A stretch of 64,000 nucleotides of DNA from the IMG/VR virus record IMGVR_UViG_3300032227_000893, positions 3,482 to 67,481 of that record, one strand, 5' to 3'. The position numbers were made by a program, and so were the translations under genes. Within the stretch, counting starts at the first letter, position 1; each line of letters begins with the position of its first letter. This document shows, piece by piece, positions 8,425-50,165 of this stretch. The DNA is from a virus. Lineage: Duplodnaviria > Caudoviricetes. Below the pieces are notes generated by a model. The model ran no database searches. It was not told the DNA's origin and saw nothing but the letters and a program-made list of their open reading frames with translations.

Positions 8425-10323
8425 ATGGCTGAGGAAACTGTTGATTTAGGGCATGCCACCGAAGCCGGACTGCGGAATGACGGACTCGCCAATGCGCTGA
8501 CTGGCATGGGAAGCGGCAGGGATAAGAGCCAATACACCTACACCAAGCCCATTACTTTCCTTATGCAGGAGGAGCTGGAAGGGCTCTATGGGGAATGGCT
8601 GCCGCGCCGCATCATCGACATCTATGCAGAGCAAGCCACCCGCAAGGGATTCAAGGTGCTGTTTGGCGGCGAGGGCGCCAAGGCCGAGGAAGTGGTGGGC
8701 GTGGAGCAAGTGATCGAGGATCTATATATTCTCGAAAGCTTGATGCTGGCATCAAAGAATTCTCGCCTCTATGGTGGTGCCGTAATCCTGCTCTACATTA
8801 ACGACGGTCGCTCTGCTGATCAGCCAGTCGACAAAAAGAATATTGCCGAAGTTGAGGGGCTGGAAGTATTAGATCGGTATCAAATTGCCCCGGTAATTAC
8901 TGAAGAAAATATCTACGATTACGCAAAGGCAACGCACTATCAAATTATTTCCGGCGATTTGATTAATCAGCCCAATCTCACCTACATCCACAAGGATAGG
9001 ATTTTACGTTTTGATGGTGACTGGCTTCCCTATCGTATCAGGCAAAGGAACTATGGGTGGGGACTGAGCAACTTGCAAGTCGTTTATGACAGCTTCCGTC
9101 ATTATTGGACTGGCTTGAATTCTGCTGCCACTTTGCTGACTGAATTTGACATTTTTGTTCACAAGATTCGTGGGCTAGCTTCCATGCTTGCTGCTGGCAA
9201 GGAAGGGCAGGTCAGGGACAGGCTTGTGCTAAACGACATGAGCAAGAGCGTTTATCGTGGCTATGCCATTGACGCAGAAAAGGAAGAGCTTAACTTTGAA
9301 AGCCGTAACCTTGGAGGTATTGGCGAAATTCTTGAGAAGCTTCGCGTAGATATTATTGGTGCATCTAAGATTCCCCACACCTTGTTGTTTGGCGAGAGCC
9401 CTGGTGGCCTTGGCTCCACTGGCCGCAGTGAGGAGCGTGACTTTGCCAAGACACTTGCTGACTATCAAACGGCAACGTTTAAACGTCCGTTGAAACAACT
9501 GATGGAATACATCCTGCTCAGCAAGACTGGCCCCACCAATGGCCGCCTTCCAGAATCATGGCGCATCCATTTCAACGACTTGTACGAGTTGAATGAGCGT
9601 GAAAAGGCTGACGTAAGGGCTCGTGTGGCAGCCGTAGATGGCCGCTACATCCAACTAGGTGTCCTCCATCCAAAAGAAGTGGCAGACGCTCGCTATGGCG
9701 GTAGCGAGTGGAACATGGAACTCACTCTCGACCCATCGCTTCCTCGCGAGCTGCCAGTGCAGGGGCGGAGTGGAGGGCAGAGTCAGGGGCAGAGTGGCTT
9801 TGCCGTACCCCCTGGTGGCCGCGATCCTCTTGATCAAACATCTGGCAGCTTGCCAATGGATGGCACTCGCAATGCCACTGACAGCACTGGCCCCTACATT
9901 TACAATTACAACACGGTTCACGAACGTAGCACGTTTCTGGAGGAAGAATCAGAAACAAACCGTGAAGAAGAGGATTCCTTCTCTGACAAAGATCTTCATC
10001 AGCAAGCAGTGGCTGCTGCGAAGAGTAGGTTTGCCGTGTATCCATCTGCCTATGCCGGAGCTTACATCTCTCAAAAATACAAGGATTTGTATAAGCGCAA
10101 GTACGGTTCGATGAAGGGTGCATTCAAGGGGAAAAAGAAGGCAATGACAATGCCCAAAACTGATGCCGCAGAGGCCATGAAAGTCTCTGGGCTACTCTTG
10201 AATGATTACGACGAAGCTGCCCTGGTCAATCAATCAGACATTGACGCTGCTCTGAATGAATGGAAGACAGAAGCACCAGAGCGTTTCAAGGACATCCTGG
10301 AGGCAACTAATGTCGAGCCTTGA
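8425..10323 (+). CDS. portal protein (DUF1073/HI1409-type) with long C-terminal extension
   Basis: SRLYGGAVIL, IHKDRILRF, IPHTLLFGESPGGL, ADYQ..FKRPL; first gene of the head operon. Confidence 0.88.
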   Translation: MAEETVDLGHATEAGLRNDGLANALTGMGSGRDKSQYTYTKPITFLMQEELEGLYGEWLPRRIIDIYAEQATRKGFKVLFGGEGAKAEEVVGVEQVIEDLYILESLMLASKNSRLYGGAVILLYINDGRSADQPVDKKNIAEVEGLEVLDRYQIAPVITEENIYDYAKATHYQIISGDLINQPNLTYIHKDRILRFDGDWLPYRIRQRNYGWGLSNLQVVYDSFRHYWTGLNSAATLLTEFDIFVHKIRGLASMLAAGKEGQVRDRLVLNDMSKSVYRGYAIDAEKEELNFESRNLGGIGEILEKLRVDIIGASKIPHTLLFGESPGGLGSTGRSEERDFAKTLADYQTATFKRPLKQLMEYILLSKTGPTNGRLPESWRIHFNDLYELNEREKADVRARVAAVDGRYIQLGVLHPKEVADARYGGSEWNMELTLDPSLPRELPVQGRSGGQSQGQSGFAVPPGGRDPLDQTSGSLPMDGTRNATDSTGPYIYNYNTVHERSTFLEEESETNREEEDSFSDKDLHQQAVAAAKSRFAVYPSAYAGAYISQKYKDLYKRKYGSMKGAFKGKKKAMTMPKTDAAEAMKVSGLLLNDYDEAALVNQSDIDAALNEWKTEAPERFKDILEATNVEP

Positions 10324-10993
10324 TAATCTTGCATCATTTAGCGATGCAGTAATGTCCACCAGGATGGACGCTAATTGGTCTTATGACCCCGTTAGCGGTC
10401 GTTATCGAGGCGAAAACGGCCGTTTCCTTAGTCGAAAAACCGTTGAAGCCCTGGTTGACGGTCGTGTTGGTAAGCTATCAACGCAACTCAAGGACTATAC
10501 GAGGCGGCTTTCTGATGGTTCCATCACCATTGATCAGTGGCAGGGCAGTGTACGTGAGGCCCTCAAGGCGGCGCACATTCAAGCGGCGGTTTTGGGGCAG
10601 GGTGGACGCAATGCGCTGTCACCTTCAGACTATGGCCGCATCGGTCAAAAGCTTCGTCAAGAATACCGTTATCTTGAACGCTTTGTTCGTGATTTACTTG
10701 ACGGGGCTGTGTCTAGCGCCCATGCTATTAATCGTATTGGCCTATACGCTGAAAGCGTTCGTAGTTCTTACTGGGAAGGAACTACGGTTCGTCAGGAGCA
10801 GCAAGGCTACTCACTCATGCGACGAATCCTGGATGGCCAAGCTGTTCACTGTCAGGATTGCATTGGTTACGCACAAAGAGGAGTAGTGCCAATTGGCAGT
10901 CTTCCGATGCCTGGACAACGGTGTGAATGTCGCGCACGATGCAAATGCACTATTGAATATCTGAGGCAGCAAGCTCCGACTGTGCCCATGTGA
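10310..10993 (+). CDS. MuF-like head morphogenesis / minor capsid protein
   Basis: Follows the portal; HCQDC...PG.RCECRARCKC C-terminus. Confidence 0.75.
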   Translation: MSSLDNLASFSDAVMSTRMDANWSYDPVSGRYRGENGRFLSRKTVEALVDGRVGKLSTQLKDYTRRLSDGSITIDQWQGSVREALKAAHIQAAVLGQGGRNALSPSDYGRIGQKLRQEYRYLERFVRDLLDGAVSSAHAINRIGLYAESVRSSYWEGTTVRQEQQGYSLMRRILDGQAVHCQDCIGYAQRGVVPIGSLPMPGQRCECRARCKCTIEYLRQQAPTVPM

Positions 10994-11031: not shown

Positions 11032-12252
11032 GTGGCAAAAATTCTTTACTGTGGCGATGTTGGTTGTCAGACGGGCTTTGGCCGAGTAGCTGAATATCTG
11101 ATTCCTGCACTGGCAAAGGAGCACGAGGTGTACGCTCTAGCCGTCAACTATGGGGGTGACCCCAATGAAATGCAGCAGATATGCCAAATGTACCCAGCGA
11201 TGGCATACGGCACTGACCCATTTGGGTCTGATCGCATTGCTGAACTGGTGCAATGTATTAAGCCGGACTTGGTGTGGGTGACCAATGACTTTTGGATTGC
11301 CATCAATCTCTGGCATCAAATCAAAGAGCTAAAGGAAACAATTCCTTTTAAATTTTTCTGCTATACACCAATTGATTCCTACGGCATCTATCCAGAAACA
11401 ATGCCGCCTACTCAGGAATGGGATGGCCTGGCCACTTACACGCGGTTTGGTGCGGAAGAGCTGAGAAAAGCTGGTTACGACAAGCATATTGATATTGTTG
11501 GCCACGGCACTGATTTTACCAAGTTTTTCCCCATTGAGAAAATGGAAAGCCGAAAGGCTTTGGGTGTGCCTGAAGATGTTTTTATTATTTTCAATGGCAA
11601 TCGAAATCAACCACGCAAGCGAATTGACTTAACGATCAAAGCTTTCATCAAGTTTGCTCTTGACAAGCCAGATGCTCGATTGTGGCTTCACATGGGCAAG
11701 AAAGATATGGGATGGGATTTAGTGCCACTGTTTAAGCGCGTAGCTCGCGACATGGAATACGAAAGCGTTGGCAAGCTCATCCTTACCGGCTCAACATTTT
11801 CTACCCACAACTGTCTTCCTGTAGAGCAGTTGAATCAGGTGTATAACGCTGTTGACATTGGCGTGAACACTTGCATTGGAGAGGGCTGGGGGCTGGTCAA
11901 TACAGAGCACGCTGCTACTGGTGTGGCGCAATTAGTGCCCGATCATACTAGTTTTAAGGAGATTTTCCATGACATCCCCCGCATTCCCATCGAAAGCTGG
12001 GAAGTCGATAGGAACTATGGACTAGACAGGGGACAGCCCTCTCCCGATGGATTGGCAGAGCTTCTCACGCAATACTACGAGGATCGTGAGCTGCTGGCTT
12101 CCGTGGGAAAATTGTGCTACGAAGATGTTCATCAAACAGAACTGACCTGGCCTGCTGTGACGAGCAAGATGGAGGCAATTGTTAAGAGATTGCTTGCGCA
12201 GCCCAGCGAGAAAGAGCCTAAAGGTTTCGGCATGCCTGTGAGGATTGATTGA
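11032..12252 (+). CDS. GT-B glycosyltransferase (GT4-like)
   Basis: TGFGRV, GHGTD, NRNQPRKRID, EGWGLVNTE motifs; GTG 11032 preferred over 10990. Confidence 0.88.
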   Translation: MAKILYCGDVGCQTGFGRVAEYLIPALAKEHEVYALAVNYGGDPNEMQQICQMYPAMAYGTDPFGSDRIAELVQCIKPDLVWVTNDFWIAINLWHQIKELKETIPFKFFCYTPIDSYGIYPETMPPTQEWDGLATYTRFGAEELRKAGYDKHIDIVGHGTDFTKFFPIEKMESRKALGVPEDVFIIFNGNRNQPRKRIDLTIKAFIKFALDKPDARLWLHMGKKDMGWDLVPLFKRVARDMEYESVGKLILTGSTFSTHNCLPVEQLNQVYNAVDIGVNTCIGEGWGLVNTEHAATGVAQLVPDHTSFKEIFHDIPRIPIESWEVDRNYGLDRGQPSPDGLAELLTQYYEDRELLASVGKLCYEDVHQTELTWPAVTSKMEAIVKRLLAQPSEKEPKGFGMPVRID

Positions 12253-12254
12253 TC

Positions 12255-12968
12255 ATGGAAATCTCGCAAATCTTTCTTAGCGATGCTCCGAATGCACAGT
12301 TGTCACCTTTTCTGAAGATGACGACTGGCACTGTTAAAGCTGCCTTCCCGGAGGCTAATCACACTATCTACACCAATGAAACACTTCGTCAATTTATTGT
12401 TGACAACTATAGCTCTCATGTGGTTTGGGCTTACGATTCACTTGCTCCCTATTCGTACAAGGCGGATCTTGGGCGATTCTGCCTCTTGAATAAGCTTGGC
12501 GGATGGTATTTTGACATTGCAGTGAGAGTGATGAATCCAGTGGATATTGGAGAGCGCATTGAATTCCTGGCATTCCGTGATATTCAACGATTTTCGTTCA
12601 CTAGTTGGGCCTGTGCCACAACAGTGCTTTATTCCAAGCGTGATAACAAGGCATTGCAAACTGCCGTCGATATGATTATTGACAATTGTCGCGAAAAATA
12701 CTATGGAATCACTCCATTGTGCCCCACTGGCCCAACGCTTTTGGGTGCTGCGCTGGCCGCAAATGGTGGCAATGCAAACCACGTCTTTGGCGACTACCTA
12801 GAACTCACGCCCACGCACGAACAGAAGAATCGCGCATTCGTGCTGCCTAATGGCACGATTATGGCATGGAGTAAGCCTTCGGGCGGTGGTGACCTCACTC
12901 AACTGGGGGCCAAGGGCACGAACAACTACAACGAACTATGGGCATCCAAAAGGGCGTACACATCATGA
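12255..12968 (+). CDS. GT-A glycosyltransferase (Gly_transf_sug / GT32-like)
   Basis: KADLGRFCLLNKLGGWYFDI and TGPTLLG motifs. Confidence 0.8.
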   Translation: MEISQIFLSDAPNAQLSPFLKMTTGTVKAAFPEANHTIYTNETLRQFIVDNYSSHVVWAYDSLAPYSYKADLGRFCLLNKLGGWYFDIAVRVMNPVDIGERIEFLAFRDIQRFSFTSWACATTVLYSKRDNKALQTAVDMIIDNCREKYYGITPLCPTGPTLLGAALAANGGNANHVFGDYLELTPTHEQKNRAFVLPNGTIMAWSKPSGGGDLTQLGAKGTNNYNELWASKRAYTS

Positions 12969-13618
12969 CTTCTCTCACTGACCTTGCCAACAGCTATAAC
13001 AGCGACAAGGGAAACGTGTATAAATGCGCTCATCACTACACAAAGCACTACGAAGATATCTTCCGGGTTTATAAATCCAGGAAGAATTTGTCCCTGCTAG
13101 AGATTGGTTTGAACCGTGATGACTGCGGCGACATTCCATCATTGCGCATGTATAAAGACTATTTTGGCGAAGAAATAAATCTCTACGGTTTCGATATTCG
13201 GCCAGAATTCAAAGCGTTTGAAAGGGAGGGATTCAATATTTACATTGGCGATCAATCTGCTCCGTCAAGCCTTGAACAATGTCTTGCCAAAGATTATGAT
13301 ATTGTCATTGACGATGGCAGCCACGCATCCTCCCATCAGCAGATTTCACTTCGCGAGCTATGGGCAACCGTAAAACCTGGCGGTGTTTATATTATTGAAG
13401 ACCTACATTGGCAGCCATTTCCCGAATCTTGGCGCAGTACGGCTGAACTTGGTAAAGATTGGTTGCGGGGCGATATGAAGGGGTCGGCATTTCTTTCGCA
13501 GTTATGGATGCAACAGTTTGAAAAAGAGCTAAGGGCGGTAGAACTTTTGCCATCCGCTAGCAAGCTGCATGATCCTTCTTTAACCGAAAACGCCCTCCTC
13601 ATTCTTTGGAAAAAATGA
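12965..13618 (+). CDS. class I SAM methyltransferase, sugar O-methyltransferase-like
   Basis: LLEIG, GFDI, GDQS, IDDGSH, VKPGGVYIIEDL; ATGA overlap with the GT. Confidence 0.82.
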   Translation: MTSLTDLANSYNSDKGNVYKCAHHYTKHYEDIFRVYKSRKNLSLLEIGLNRDDCGDIPSLRMYKDYFGEEINLYGFDIRPEFKAFEREGFNIYIGDQSAPSSLEQCLAKDYDIVIDDGSHASSHQQISLRELWATVKPGGVYIIEDLHWQPFPESWRSTAELGKDWLRGDMKGSAFLSQLWMQQFEKELRAVELLPSASKLHDPSLTENALLILWKK

Positions 13619-14847
13619 CAACTAGCTGGGACTGCTTTGATACGCTTGTCACACGCAGGCGACTTGATCCATTGTCTGTTTTTGACGACATGGGAATCAA
13701 GCTTGACTTAGATAATTTTACGGTGCGCCGAAAGGCTGCTGAAGGTCGGGCTCCTTGGACACTGCATACTATCTACGAAGAACTTGCAAAAGATTATCAA
13801 TGGACTGAAGCACAGAAGGAATATTACAAGCAAGAAGAAATCAACGCAGAGCTAGAACATTGCTGTCCCATTGTTGAAAATATTAACAGGGTTGCAGATG
13901 GTGACTTGATCGTTAGCGATATGTATCTACCGCCGGAAGCTGTTGAAGCTATCTTGCGCAAAAATGGCCTCAATAGGGATGTGCAAGTAACTGTCACCAC
14001 AGGAGGTAAAAGTTCTGGAACCATTTGGAGTACACTTCCACATATTGATTTACATGTGGGGGATAATTTCCACTCAGATGTTGCCAGCCCCCAAAACGCT
14101 GGTATCAAGGGAGAACATTACACGGATGTTCATTTGACACCTTTCGAGCAAAACATGGGCGGAGACATGGCTCTCCTGATGCGCGTCATCCGGCTGGCAT
14201 GTCCCTATGAAAAGGGTAGCCTGATGTGGCATATGTGGATTGATCAGGCGGGGTTAAACATTCCAGCCTTGGTCCTGGCCTCCCTGGAAATTCCTTTGGA
14301 GAATGTTGCCTTTGTGATGAGGGATTCGGTCCATTTAAAGCGCATTTATGATGCACTACATAATACAGTAAGCGCTGAATTCCATTGCTCTCGCATTGCC
14401 CTAGGGAGCGGAGGAGTTGCTTGGAGAAAATATGTAGAAGAAACTGCTAAAGGAAAGCTTATCGTTGATTTACAGGGGACGGGAGGAAGCGTTATTAATT
14501 ACTGGCGTCAAACATTCGGGGAGGATCCTCAATTGCTTTACTTGACCGGCACGTTGCGTCTCGGTACATTGCTAGCCCCATGCCTTCACGATGCAATTGA
14601 AAGGCTTAACTCCTCCCCGCTTGGAAGCTTGTCCGCTTATCCGCATCGCAAGCCTTGTGAGTTCAACAAAGACGTGCTTGACTGCCAGGAAAAAGCAGTG
14701 AGCAATGCTATTGGGCATCTTCCGTATTTCAACTTTTCTCCCAATATCAATGTATTTCGCTTCTTGGTGGAGCAAATGCCCCACACCACAACATTCAAGC
14801 AAAACATCCACGTGGATAACCATGAAAACGTTTCTGATGTAGAATAA
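13615..14847 (+). CDS. HAD phosphatase + phosphoribosyltransferase two-domain protein (ribofuranosyltransferase-like)
   Basis: N-terminal SWDCFDTL, IVSDMY, K-SG, HVGDN..SD; C-terminal FVMRDS and IVDLQGTGGS; ATGA overlap. Confidence 0.7.
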   Translation: MTTSWDCFDTLVTRRRLDPLSVFDDMGIKLDLDNFTVRRKAAEGRAPWTLHTIYEELAKDYQWTEAQKEYYKQEEINAELEHCCPIVENINRVADGDLIVSDMYLPPEAVEAILRKNGLNRDVQVTVTTGGKSSGTIWSTLPHIDLHVGDNFHSDVASPQNAGIKGEHYTDVHLTPFEQNMGGDMALLMRVIRLACPYEKGSLMWHMWIDQAGLNIPALVLASLEIPLENVAFVMRDSVHLKRIYDALHNTVSAEFHCSRIALGSGGVAWRKYVEETAKGKLIVDLQGTGGSVINYWRQTFGEDPQLLYLTGTLRLGTLLAPCLHDAIERLNSSPLGSLSAYPHRKPCEFNKDVLDCQEKAVSNAIGHLPYFNFSPNINVFRFLVEQMPHTTTFKQNIHVDNHENVSDVE

Positions 14848-14876
14848 TTTTTACTCTCATACACTCGCAATAGCAA

Positions 14877-15158
14877 ATGACAATGGAAGATCGTGGAGAT
14901 GCGGCAATGCCTAAAACCAAAAAGGCAAAGCAAGCGAAAATCGCCAAGGTAATGCGCGAATTTAAGGCTGGCACTCTCAAGGGCAGCGACCAAAAAGCCA
15001 TTACCAATCGCAAGCAGGCAATTGCCATCGCTCTTTCTGAGGCTGGCATGTCGATGCAAGGCAAGAGTGACGAATACTGGGACAGCTACGTGGTGACAAT
15101 TATGGGCGGAGAGGAGGAAGAGGAGGAAATGGAGGATCCCGAAGAGGGAAAGTCTTAA
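14877..15158 (+). CDS. small head-module protein (DUF6496-like) with acidic tail; short product of a frameshift gene
   Basis: KIAKVMREFKAGTLK...RKQAIAIALSEAG motif. Confidence 0.75.
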   Translation: MTMEDRGDAAMPKTKKAKQAKIAKVMREFKAGTLKGSDQKAITNRKQAIAIALSEAGMSMQGKSDEYWDSYVVTIMGGEEEEEEMEDPEEGKS

Positions 15159-15183
15159 GGGGAGACGCTGAGTCGTTCTCCCC
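15146..15183 (+). other. programmed -1 frameshift signal (G GGA AAG, 6-nt spacer, GC-rich hairpin)
   Basis: Heptamer 15146-15152 in frame; hairpin GGGGAGACG-CTGAGT-CGTTCTCCCC 15159-15183. Confidence 0.75.
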
Positions 15184-15505
15184 TCCGTCGCCTGTACGGT
15201 CCGCAGCACGTCGCGGGCTTGAATTGCGCAAGAAGTATCGGAAGGGTGGGCTGACCACCCAGGAGGCCGGTAAGCAGGGCATTGGTAGCGGGGTGGCACG
15301 GGCGACGAGCCTGGGCAGCGGAGAATCCGTGAGTTTTGAAACAATCAAGCGTATGGCGGCATTCTTTTCTCGTCACGAGAAGAACAAAAGTGGTGGTGAA
15401 AATGATGCTGGTTACATTGCTTGGCAACTATGGGGAGGAGATGCGGGTAGGGCGTGGGCAAATCGTGTGATTAAGATGGTTGAAAATCGCCAATCAAGAC
15501 AGTGA
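15152..15505 (+). CDS. C-terminal domain reached by -1 frameshift (VLRGDAESFSPP...ETIKRM...IAWQLWGGDAG)
   Basis: Protein-like sequence begins about 24 codons before the first TTG (15224); no ATG/GTG/TTG in that part of the frame. Confidence 0.7.
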   Translation, partial: VLRGDAESFSPPSPVRSAARRGLELRKKYRKGGLTTQEAGKQGIGSGVARATSLGSGESVSFETIKRMAAFFSRHEKNKSGGENDAGYIAWQLWGGDAGRAWANRVIKMVENRQSRQ

Positions 15506-15810
15506 GCGAATACGTCCGTGTGATCGAAGCTGAGGAGGATGGGATTGGCGTGATGAAGGCGCTAGCCATCTTGTCATCCAATGAACATCGCAATACCAGT
15601 GAGTGGCACTTGGTTGAAAAGCAATGCTTCAAAAATGGGCGGCTAGACGAAACGCATATTTATTGCGAGAGTCATTACGACAAGCCTGATGAGTATTTTG
15701 AAAAGACAAAATTCCTCACCTTTGAGGTGGAGGCAATGGCAAAAGCGTACATCATGGAGGGCATTGAAGAAGCAATTCGCTCCACTCAAGAGGAAGGCGA
15801 CGAAGACTAA
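15502..15810 (+). CDS. hypothetical acidic protein
   Basis: GTGA overlap with the preceding ORF. Confidence 0.65.
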   Translation: MSEYVRVIEAEEDGIGVMKALAILSSNEHRNTSEWHLVEKQCFKNGRLDETHIYCESHYDKPDEYFEKTKFLTFEVEAMAKAYIMEGIEEAIRSTQEEGDED

Positions 15811-16058
15811 TCTCTTATTGCGTTGACAACAAAGCTAGGCATGCCCAGAAGCCATAGCACGGACAATCCATAGAGGCCGCTTAACGTGGCTAGTTGCACT
15901 GCGCTTGGCTCTGTTTCGCCGTTTTCAATACGGCAGTAAGTGGATTGTCCAATGTGCAAAACTTGTGCCACATCACGCTGGGTAAGGCCGCTGTTTAGTC
16001 GTGCATCTTTTAGCCGCGAAGCTACCAACGCACGACGTTGGTAGTGTGGCATGTTCAT
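15807..16058 (-). CDS. XRE/Cro-C1 family HTH regulator
   Basis: RLKDARLNSGLTQRDVAQVLHIGQSTYCRIENGETEP...LSVLWLLG. Confidence 0.88.
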   Translation of the reverse strand: MNMPHYQRRALVASRLKDARLNSGLTQRDVAQVLHIGQSTYCRIENGETEPSAVQLATLSGLYGLSVLWLLGMPSFVVNAIRD

Positions 16059-16136
16059 CGCATTGACACTGCTGGCCACAAATCTAGTCACGTGATTCGT
16101 CTCTGGTTCAGGAATCGCAATCTAACACAAAATGTT

Positions 16137-49442: not shown

Positions 49443-50165
49443 TCAGAATTGGTAGTTGTTTTCGGCAAACGCCTCGAAGGCTTCAGGGGCGATGGGTTCG
49501 GCCAGCTTAAGAAGGGCCTCGGCATAAACAGCAATTTCATGCTGGGCTCCCTTGCTAATGCGGAGGCTAATGAAATGCAGCAGAGCTTGCAGGGAGCAGG
49601 TCCAGACGAAGCTCGTGTACATGCATGGAGGCAGCACGCCACGAGCCTGCTCACGGCTTACGCCAGCGGCTAGGAGCGCATCATAAGCTTGCCTGCTTTC
49701 CTCCACAGTCTTCGTATAAATCTGAGTTGCCAGGGCCTGCCCCCGTGAATCAAGTGGCTCTCCAGAGGCTTGCCTGTTGCTAGCGGCCTGTGAAGCGAAC
49801 TGAGCAGGCACATAAAATTCTGCATCTTGGGCCGGACAATAGCGGAAGCTCTTCTCATTCCAGCCAAGCTGGTCGTCCACGTAAGTGGACGCAATGGTGT
49901 GTTTGTACCACTGCCGAGCAATGAACAATGGGGCCTTCACCATCCATTTAAAGACAACACCACGAAATGGGCTTGTGTGCTGGTGCTTGATTAAATACTT
50001 GAGGAGTTTTGCATCACGCTCGGACCATTCCTCGGAATGACCATCAAGGCTTTGCCTGGCATCGTTCACAATGGACAGACTGTTCCCCATTGCATCAATG
50101 AGGCACAAATAACTTTTCCCATCGTTCAAGGGGTCAATGGGGGGCGGAAGGCGCAAATCAATCAT
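49443..50165 (-). CDS. thyX: flavin-dependent thymidylate synthase
   Basis: HTSPF, ARQWYKH...WNEKSFRY, EQARGVLP, LLHFISLR. Confidence 0.93.
   Translation of the reverse strand: MIDLRLPPPIDPLNDGKSYLCLIDAMGNSLSIVNDARQSLDGHSEEWSERDAKLLKYLIKHQHTSPFRGVVFKWMVKAPLFIARQWYKHTIASTYVDDQLGWNEKSFRYCPAQDAEFYVPAQFASQAASNRQASGEPLDSRGQALATQIYTKTVEESRQAYDALLAAGVSREQARGVLPPCMYTSFVWTCSLQALLHFISLRISKGAQHEIAVYAEALLKLAEPIAPEAFEAFAENNYQF

Follow-up and report, generated by a model that had tools for sequence, protein, structure and literature searches.

Transferases that attach ribofuranose with phosphoribosyl pyrophosphate (PRPP) as donor are known from bacteria only, and glycosylation of virions is known for chloroviruses and has been reported for mycobacteriophages. 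The dual-domain ribofuranosyltransferases, described as the CrpP-CriT part of the capsule polymerase Bcs3 of Haemophilus influenzae type b (PDB 8A0C/8A0M; PMC10299916), an enzyme of Thermobacillus composti (PDB 7SHG) and ORF5/ORF7 of Klebsiella O4/O7 (PMC11231755), transfer ribofuranose-5-phosphate from PRPP and then remove the 5-phosphate (PMC10299916, PMC11231755). In Bcs3 a HAD phosphatase, which has the first Asp of motif I only, is joined to a phosphoribosyltransferase (PRT)-like transferase, and the CriT part has a ribose-binding pair (D680/E818), the pairs S678-R679 and S707-R708, a phosphate loop (821–825) and a proposed base, E874 (PMC10299916). Among viruses, PBCV-1 A064R combines two rhamnosyltransferase domains with a methyltransferase domain in chlorovirus capsid glycosylation, and NY-2A B736L is a GT-B protein without an established role that binds GDP-mannose, the sugar of which is absent from the NY-2A capsid glycan (PMC9614988). 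In mycobacteriophages, phage glycosyltransferase (GT) genes have been linked with glycosylated capsid and tail proteins (Freeman et al. 2023, as cited in PMC12801897 and PMC11256854). The present study concerns four genes, here called A–D (positions 11032–14847), that lie among the head genes in a viral DNA stretch of 64,000 nucleotides (nt), the window, taken from IMG/VR record IMGVR_UViG_3300032227_000893. With a probability of about 0.5, these genes form a cytoplasmic assembly line for a methylated, ribose-containing glycan, the acceptor of which is a virion structural protein.

The virus record is 67.5 kb in length and 94% complete according to CheckV, and the window covers nearly all of it. 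With the portal protein of Synechococcus phage S-CBS4, a cultured cyanosiphovirus, its own portal protein shares 63% identity, and the gene order of S-CBS4 agrees with the window, which points to an uncultured relative of that phage as the source virus. Genes A–D are co-oriented and tightly coupled, as the initial annotation had noticed: the stop codon of A (12250–12252) is followed, after a gap of 2 nt, by the ATG of B at 12255, and the B/C and C/D junctions are both ATGA overlaps (12968/12965 and 13618/13615). Their base composition is that of the neighbouring head genes, and no hydrophobic segment resembling a membrane helix occurs in any of the four proteins (lengths in amino acids, aa). 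The genes, with the two domains of D, are:

11032–12252, plus strand: gene A, GT4-type (GT-B, retaining) glycosyltransferase, 406 aa, GTG start
12255–12968, plus strand: gene B, GT32-like GT-A glycosyltransferase, 237 aa
12965–13618, plus strand: gene C, predicted S-adenosylmethionine (SAM)-dependent sugar O-methyltransferase with a MycE/TylE-type catalytic core, 217 aa, variable accessory gene
13615–14847, plus strand: gene D, predicted compact two-domain PRPP-dependent ribofuranosyltransferase, 410 aa
13615–14160, plus strand: N-terminal domain of D (residues ~1–182), HAD-type phosphoribosyl 5-phosphatase, CrpP/PRP-like
14161–14847, plus strand: C-terminal domain of D (residues ~183–410), compact PRT-like glycan phosphoribosyltransferase, CriT/gPRT-like, without the HB-2 insert

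The family assignments made at first from the letters (GT4-like, GT32-like, SAM O-methyltransferase and HAD/PRT) hold in Pfam, PHROG, profile and fold searches. The enzymology deduced from them, two GTs, a sugar O-methyltransferase and a PRPP-dependent ribofuranosyltransferase, is well supported and predicts a glycan that is methylated and contains ribose.

The window genes were mapped onto 51 viral loci with A and 4 with D. A comes after the minor-head gene in every collected locus, and the head-module position of the cassette, for which synteny in relatives had been proposed as a check, is kept across about 55 relatives. Measured from the minor-head gene to the DUF6496 gene, the slot ranges from 2.6 to 7.1 kb, and the 33 complete slots found via A display 20 architectures. 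Since these loci were collected through A, the sample is biased, and a second sample was therefore anchored on the protease. Here A and B are both present in 20 of 20 complete slots and D in only two of the 20, which identifies A and B as core genes of the lineage and the remainder as accessory. The position of the island, after the minor-head gene and ahead of the head-maturation genes, is the same in every complete slot of either sample (33 A-found, 20 protease-anchored). The slot is a hypervariable glycan island in which two enzymes are fixed and the remainder is exchanged between close relatives. Its variable genes include methyltransferases (an NDP-hexose-type C-methyltransferase, and CmcI-like, FkbM-like and Methyltransf_23-type enzymes), the glycosyltransferases GT2 and GT25, DUF4422, a radical SAM/SPASM enzyme, an epimerase/dehydratase with a DegT aminotransferase, HNH endonucleases and, upstream of A, a xylose-isomerase-like TIM barrel protein with an FAD oxidoreductase.

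Comparison of the window with two relatives (L009 and L011) by blastn shows the borders of one such exchange. The flanks are 87–89% identical in nucleotides and A–B 79–80%, but homology stops at 12943 and resumes at 14875–14916. In place of C and D these relatives carry DUF4422, with or without a C-methyltransferase, unk217 and a CmcI-type O-methyltransferase. The two breakpoints define the C–D pair as one exchanged module:

12944–14875, plus strand: swappable C + D module, with other sugar genes in its place in L009 and L011

HNH homing-type endonuclease genes are found at island edges in S-CBS4 (L002, 12317–12874) and in loci L017, L021, L022, L024 and L025, and such enzymes may drive cassette exchange. 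A megablast search of the island against GenBank phages gave no matches.

The GTG start of A at 11032 is at a position kept in all of the approximately 55 relatives, most of which have no in-frame start upstream. An alternative GTG at 10990, overlapping the upstream stop codon, was rejected because the relatives do not have the resulting extension. A matches Pfam Glycos_transf_1 (4e-7, 30.2 bits, cut-off 26.4) and phrog_2170 (9e-55) and contains the EX7E motif (E284-x7-E292), so that both the Pfam score and the motif place it in GT4. Among solved structures it has a single sequence match, chlorovirus NY-2A B736L (3oy2), at 2.4e-17 and over the full length. The S-CBS4 orthologue, gp014, is 61% identical. 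Related GT4 genes have capsid and adaptor genes on either side in Microcystis phage Mae-JY09; in Tetrasphaera phage TJE1 they belong to a sugar-nucleotide cluster that adjoins terminase/packaging genes.

B is the best conserved gene of the island, with a median identity to relatives of 76%; the search gave 717 homologues, of which the best 120 are all at least 76% identical. It matches PF04488 (Gly_transf_sug) at 7.7e-6 (27.0 bits, cut-off 23). No meaningful match was obtained by phmmer against PDB sequences, and the fold is taken from prediction. The AlphaFold2 model (predicted local distance difference test, pLDDT, 97) has a GT-A fold, and its nearest neighbours in Foldseek are PaToxG, YeGT, SetA, Och1, LtpM, Lgt1, PBCV-1 A64R, the glucosyltransferase domains of large clostridial toxins and glycogenin, with values of 4e-8 to 1e-6 for Och1 (9n3s, root-mean-square deviation (rmsd) 3.0, 186 columns) and related GT-A enzymes. 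These neighbours are retaining GT-A enzymes, many of them protein-directed. The DXD site of B is D87-I88-A89, and across 51 homologues D87 alone is invariant, the third position being occupied by T, G, S or A; as the family keeps the first Asp of DXD only, B is called GT32-like and not a canonical member. B-like domains are also found in larger proteins. In P0246 (1390 aa) a GT4 domain is naturally fused with two DUF4214 repeats and two B-like GT32 domains, an arrangement that mirrors the A-then-B order, and in P0276 a B-like domain is fused to a long TPR array.

Gene C is predicted to encode an O-methyltransferase for a sugar, of the MycE/TylE type, on the basis of its SAM-binding core. In a phmmer search of the PDB it matched MycE (3ssm, 3.1e-16) and TylE (8ia9, 5.6e-14), with query residues 6–153 aligned to chain residues 161–328. 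The N-terminal auxiliary domain of these two-domain enzymes, which are about 400 aa long, is absent from C, and the match is confined to the C-terminal half of their chains (397–419 aa). C also matches phrog_21658 (1.9e-15) and stays under the cut-off for Pfam Methyltransf_24. The similarity to natural-product sugar O-methyltransferases, together with the presence among the nearest folds of B of bacterial effectors that glycosylate host proteins, could indicate that the cassette glycosylates a non-structural target, i.e. a small molecule or a host cytoplasmic protein, in the manner of a takeover or toxin-like GT-A enzyme, and has no role in the particle or the envelope. We regard this as very unlikely. 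Fold likeness in a predicted model is no proof of function, four enzymes with swappable sugar-tailoring genes fit an oligosaccharide and not a single-sugar modification of a protein, and neither the head-module position nor the core status suggests early takeover.

D has at least 159 homologues of similar length, and 46 of these were used for a family profile and for the analysis of invariant residues. The profile matches the CrpP region of Bcs3 (residues 385–608) at 6e-17 and the T. composti enzyme 7SHG at 2e-5. The AlphaFold2 model (pLDDT 94.9) finds Bcs3 (2e-16) and 7SHG (7e-9) in Foldseek, and no other protein matches over the whole length. In VIA-align, residues 1–402 of the model align with residues 381–965 of Bcs3 (8a0m_C) with Z 21.0 (401 aligned, rmsd 7.8), and the model matches 7shg_A with Z 17.7 (371 aligned), while other matches cover the HAD domain only (Z 13.6 or less). 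With its N-terminal HAD domain and C-terminal PRT-like domain, D has both elements of the PRP-gPRT / CrpP-CriT enzymes. Invariant or near-invariant residues of the HAD domain are D6 (in W-D-C-F-D-T-L), S101-D102, K132, G149-D150-N151 and D155, and motif I keeps its first Asp only, as reported for D386 of CrpP. In the PRT-like domain, R236-D237, S259-R260, D285, G288/G290/S292 and E329 are invariant. Judged by order and spacing, and not by superposition, they would correspond to R679-D680, S707-R708, E818, 821–825 and E874 of Bcs3, minus the 80-residue HB-2 insert. The best reading of D is transfer from PRPP followed by dephosphorylation, carried out by what would be a compact, 410-aa form of the enzyme.

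In all seven distinct viral loci with D, the gene immediately 5' of D encodes a methyltransferase, of the C type in the window and in L005 and L006, and of the FkbM type in L007, L030, L054 and L056. D also occurs in fusion proteins (FkbM-D, GT2-D and D-Caps_synth). The constant methyltransferase neighbour and the FkbM-D fusion suggest that methylation and ribosylation may take place on neighbouring or identical residues. One further protein, P0009 (505 aa), found on a single metagenomic contig of 2.5 kb, is recorded as a D-DUF6496 fusion. This may result from a lost stop codon, or may hint at the DUF6496 head protein as a partner or acceptor of D.

Taken together, the most likely meaning of the island is a sugar coat on the virus particle that differs from strain to strain, and the cassette is most likely transcribed with the head-gene block. 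In the pathway set out here, donors, sequence of steps, late expression and acceptor are inferences. A (GT4, probably with an NDP-hexose donor) and B (GT32-like, retaining GT-A) would be the fixed core that places the first sugars onto a conserved acceptor, and C would O-methylate a sugar hydroxyl. The PRT-like domain of D would then transfer ribofuranose-5-phosphate from PRPP onto a sugar hydroxyl, after which the HAD domain would strip the 5-phosphate, leaving a ribofuranose probably at or near the non-reducing end. The acceptor would be a virion structural protein produced at the same time, e.g. a capsid, cement, portal-region or tail protein. Recombination between close relatives exchanges the accessory part of the island, here C and D. 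A virion acceptor is favoured, on indirect grounds, because A and B are core genes at a fixed site in the head block, the four enzymes are soluble, and no integrase or export genes were found. It is favoured also because A has a chlorovirus relative, and B a chlorovirus fold neighbour, tied to capsid glycosylation, and because of the position of related GT4 genes among the capsid and packaging genes of Mae-JY09 and TJE1.

Several observations weigh against this interpretation. The D relatives that have been characterised all use capsule or O-antigen polysaccharides, and no proteins, as acceptors. Hypervariability is also expected from an arms race at the host surface. Some island genes of relatives lie on the opposite strand, so that a single late transcript will not in every case cover the island in a simple way. 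A scan for consensus promoters and terminators gave the same counts as in shuffled sequence, with no site at the cassette borders; it neither supports nor refutes co-transcription. In B, the second Asp of the canonical DXD is not kept. Lastly, one cyanobacterial genome has a D homologue of about 700 aa among GT2, GT61, sulfotransferase, NeuB and DUF6716 genes, i.e. in a cluster of the surface-glycan type.

The activity of the characterised D relatives in capsule or O-antigen synthesis and the cyanobacterial gene cluster are also evidence for a different explanation, in which sugars, methyl groups and ribofuranose are added to lipid-linked or surface intermediates of the host and the island so remodels a host envelope glycan, be it lipopolysaccharide O-antigen, exopolysaccharide or S-layer glycoprotein. 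D-like genes occur in 12 of 401 sampled cyanobacterial genomes, mostly as forms of about 700 aa and in small genomes. The turnover of the island (20 architectures in 33 slots) is like that of bacterial surface-glycan loci, and the peripheral GTs of polysaccharide synthesis are likewise soluble. This explanation is possible but rather unlikely, as is the purpose it would serve, a block to superinfection or the prevention of progeny adsorption to infected cells and debris. The 94%-complete genome yielded no integrase of either the tyrosine or the serine type, and the S-CBS4 annotation contains none either, which makes lysogenic conversion unlikely; the source virus is probably a non-temperate, S-CBS4-like cyanosiphovirus. 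The island is located within the head-gene block and is not an early or moron-like unit, no promoter or terminator signal being seen to flank it. Unlike optional conversion genes, A and B are core in all 20 of the independently sampled relatives. Finally, no priming transferase, flippase, polymerase, ligase or exporter was seen in any island.

Homologues of D with 35–40% identity are present in metagenomic contigs, and a scan of genome contigs yielded mostly distant proteobacterial homologues. A D-like locus in Paraburkholderia was considered as a possible glycan context and set aside, as its neighbours are transporter, kinase and efflux genes and uninformative on glycans. Inspection of one locus, L064, for flagellin beside a ribofuranosyltransferase-methyltransferase pair showed no flagellin reading frame. 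In a 2.66-Mb cyanobacterial genome (L084, G388:C1, 8807–14720) a 699-aa D-like protein has as neighbours a sulfotransferase and a 761-aa protein in which NeuB is fused to a xylose-isomerase-like TIM barrel; the barrel is of the same Pfam family as an accessory gene of the phage islands (L009, 6422–7282).

The gene content of the rest of the genome bears on a third explanation, that the enzymes hypermodify phage DNA by placing sugars, including a pentose, on a modified base, so as to evade restriction as in T-even glucosylation or RB69 arabinosylation. Glycosylation of phage DNA exists and varies between relatives, and diversifying selection by restriction systems could account for the turnover of the cassette. 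What makes the explanation weak is that the 94%-complete genome gave no gene of the ThyA type (dCMP/dUMP hydroxymethylase-like) and has ThyX only:

~49482–50102 (G000:C1:52963–53583), minus strand: ThyX-type thymidylate synthase (Thy1, 3.4e-47)

S-CBS4 has a dCTP deaminase, consistent with a canonical supply of dTTP, the island is far from the replication and nucleotide genes, and the relatives of D act on sugar acceptors. To our knowledge, the known DNA-glycosylation systems are without sugar O- or C-methyltransferases and without DegT and epimerase genes. A role in DNA modification is accordingly judged highly improbable, and a glycan on the virion continues to be the preferred reading.

The head module containing the cassette runs in the order large terminase (minus strand), portal, a 245-aa protein, genes A–D, four small genes, protease, cement protein and major capsid protein. 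The neighbouring features are:

8425–10323: portal, head module
10256–10993, plus strand: 245-aa minor head-region protein (phrog_24776, 6e-81, a PHROG without known function), left border of the island slot
14877–15505, plus strand: small head-region gene(s), right border of the island slot, a place kept in all complete slots
14877–15158, plus strand: DUF6496 gene (PF20106, 2e-8), first small gene 3' of D
15807–16091, minus strand: Xre-type helix-turn-helix gene, 94 aa (HTH_3, 1.8e-12), just upstream of the protease
From 16152: DUF2213-type head maturation protease

The gene for the 245-aa protein adjoins the portal gene in all relatives. It had been labelled MuF in the initial annotation, and this name was rejected as an unverified guess from position, since the protein remains without a Pfam match at a threshold as loose as E 0.5 and belongs to a PHROG of no assigned function. 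The placement of the cassette between MuF and the protease/capsid genes is right as to the head-module site, but four small genes separate D from the protease, namely the DUF6496 gene, two unnamed genes and the minus-strand Xre-type gene. The last of these is kept in relatives, and its S-CBS4 counterpart, gp021, is annotated as a transcriptional repressor. The portal reading frame overlaps the 245-aa gene by 68 nt. In many relatives the portal match stops at about 90% of the query and is followed by a gap of about 350 nt to the next gene, and the low-complexity C-terminal tail of the portal is accordingly variable within the lineage.

Cyanophages control the picocyanobacteria, which perform much of aquatic primary production, and we know of no description of sugars on cyanophage particles. 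With D as read here, the recently discovered PRPP-dependent route to ribofuranose would reach beyond bacterial capsules and O-antigens into viruses. The lineage is common in metagenomes, as indicated by the number of homologues of B (717). A core GT pair accompanied by rapidly swapped sugar-tailoring genes would mean variable surface glycans on phage particles, which could affect adsorption, stability, grazing and recognition by host defences. The wider proposition is that siphoviruses of picocyanobacteria, in an abundant lineage, cover their particles with methylated, ribofuranose-bearing glycans that differ between strains and are specified by a hypervariable 'serotype' island in the head module. 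It is advanced tentatively, as somewhat short of an even chance; if it is true, virion glycosylation would have its first example in cyanophages, and D would be the first PRPP-dependent ribofuranosyltransferase acting on a protein-linked glycan and the first in a virus. The question of the acceptor is directly testable because S-CBS4, which has a GT4-GT2-methyltransferase set in the same slot, is a cultured phage. In its compact form of 410 aa, D would also be suited to mechanistic and glyco-engineering work.

In a search of 50,697 GenBank phage records B had no match, and for D a single weak match of full type came up, in the metagenomic Virus Rctr41k, where the gene is again close to a methyltransferase gene and 5' of the terminase gene. 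No phage ribofuranosyltransferase is described in the literature that was found; the papers that mention both a ribofuranosyltransferase and phages deal, according to their titles and abstracts, with bacterial glycans. New here are the structure of the island, with a core and a swappable part, its exact breakpoints and the compact form of the enzyme.

Compared with the dual-domain enzymes Bcs3, 7SHG and those of Klebsiella, D has the same order of domains (HAD, then PRT-like) and a predicted fold that matches over both. It shares with the CrpP-CriT enzymes the motif I reduced to its first Asp, the SDMY, K and GDNxxxD motifs, and, in the same order, putative counterparts of the R-D, S-R, acidic-plus-glycine-loop and E motifs. 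Its identity to enzymes of this type is only about 18–23%, and it accommodates in 410 aa two domains that elsewhere occupy about 590–660 aa, being without the HB-2 helical insert and most of the helical bundles. D differs from the CrpP-CriT enzymes also in being encoded by a phage, in a block of head genes and always 3' of a methyltransferase gene, and its acceptor may not be a polysaccharide.

The chloroviruses (PBCV-1 A064R and A546L, NY-2A B736L) and the cassette are alike in having virus-encoded soluble GTs together with sugar O-methylation. A is a full-length sequence relative of NY-2A B736L (2.4e-17), and the predicted fold of B matches the GT-A domain of PBCV-1 A64R. The chloroviruses, however, are giant viruses of eukaryotes, and no ribofuranosyltransferase has been described from them. 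In the case of the mycobacteriophages, the hosts belong to a different phylum from those of cyanophages, and no sequence relationship between their enzymes and those of the cassette was seen in the GenBank phage search. As in the phage virion glycosylation systems, the GTs of the cassette are encoded by the virus and located among structural genes. The closest cultured counterpart is S-CBS4 (NC_016766), which is without D and has an HNH endonuclease following its cassette. Its gp015 and gp016 were tried as orthologues of B and C and rejected, as tblastn and Pfam identify them as a GT2 and a different, Methyltransf_23-type, methyltransferase. Despite these differences in content, gp014–gp016 of S-CBS4 occupy the same slot as the cassette described here, after the portal gene and gp013 and before the small head genes and the protease.

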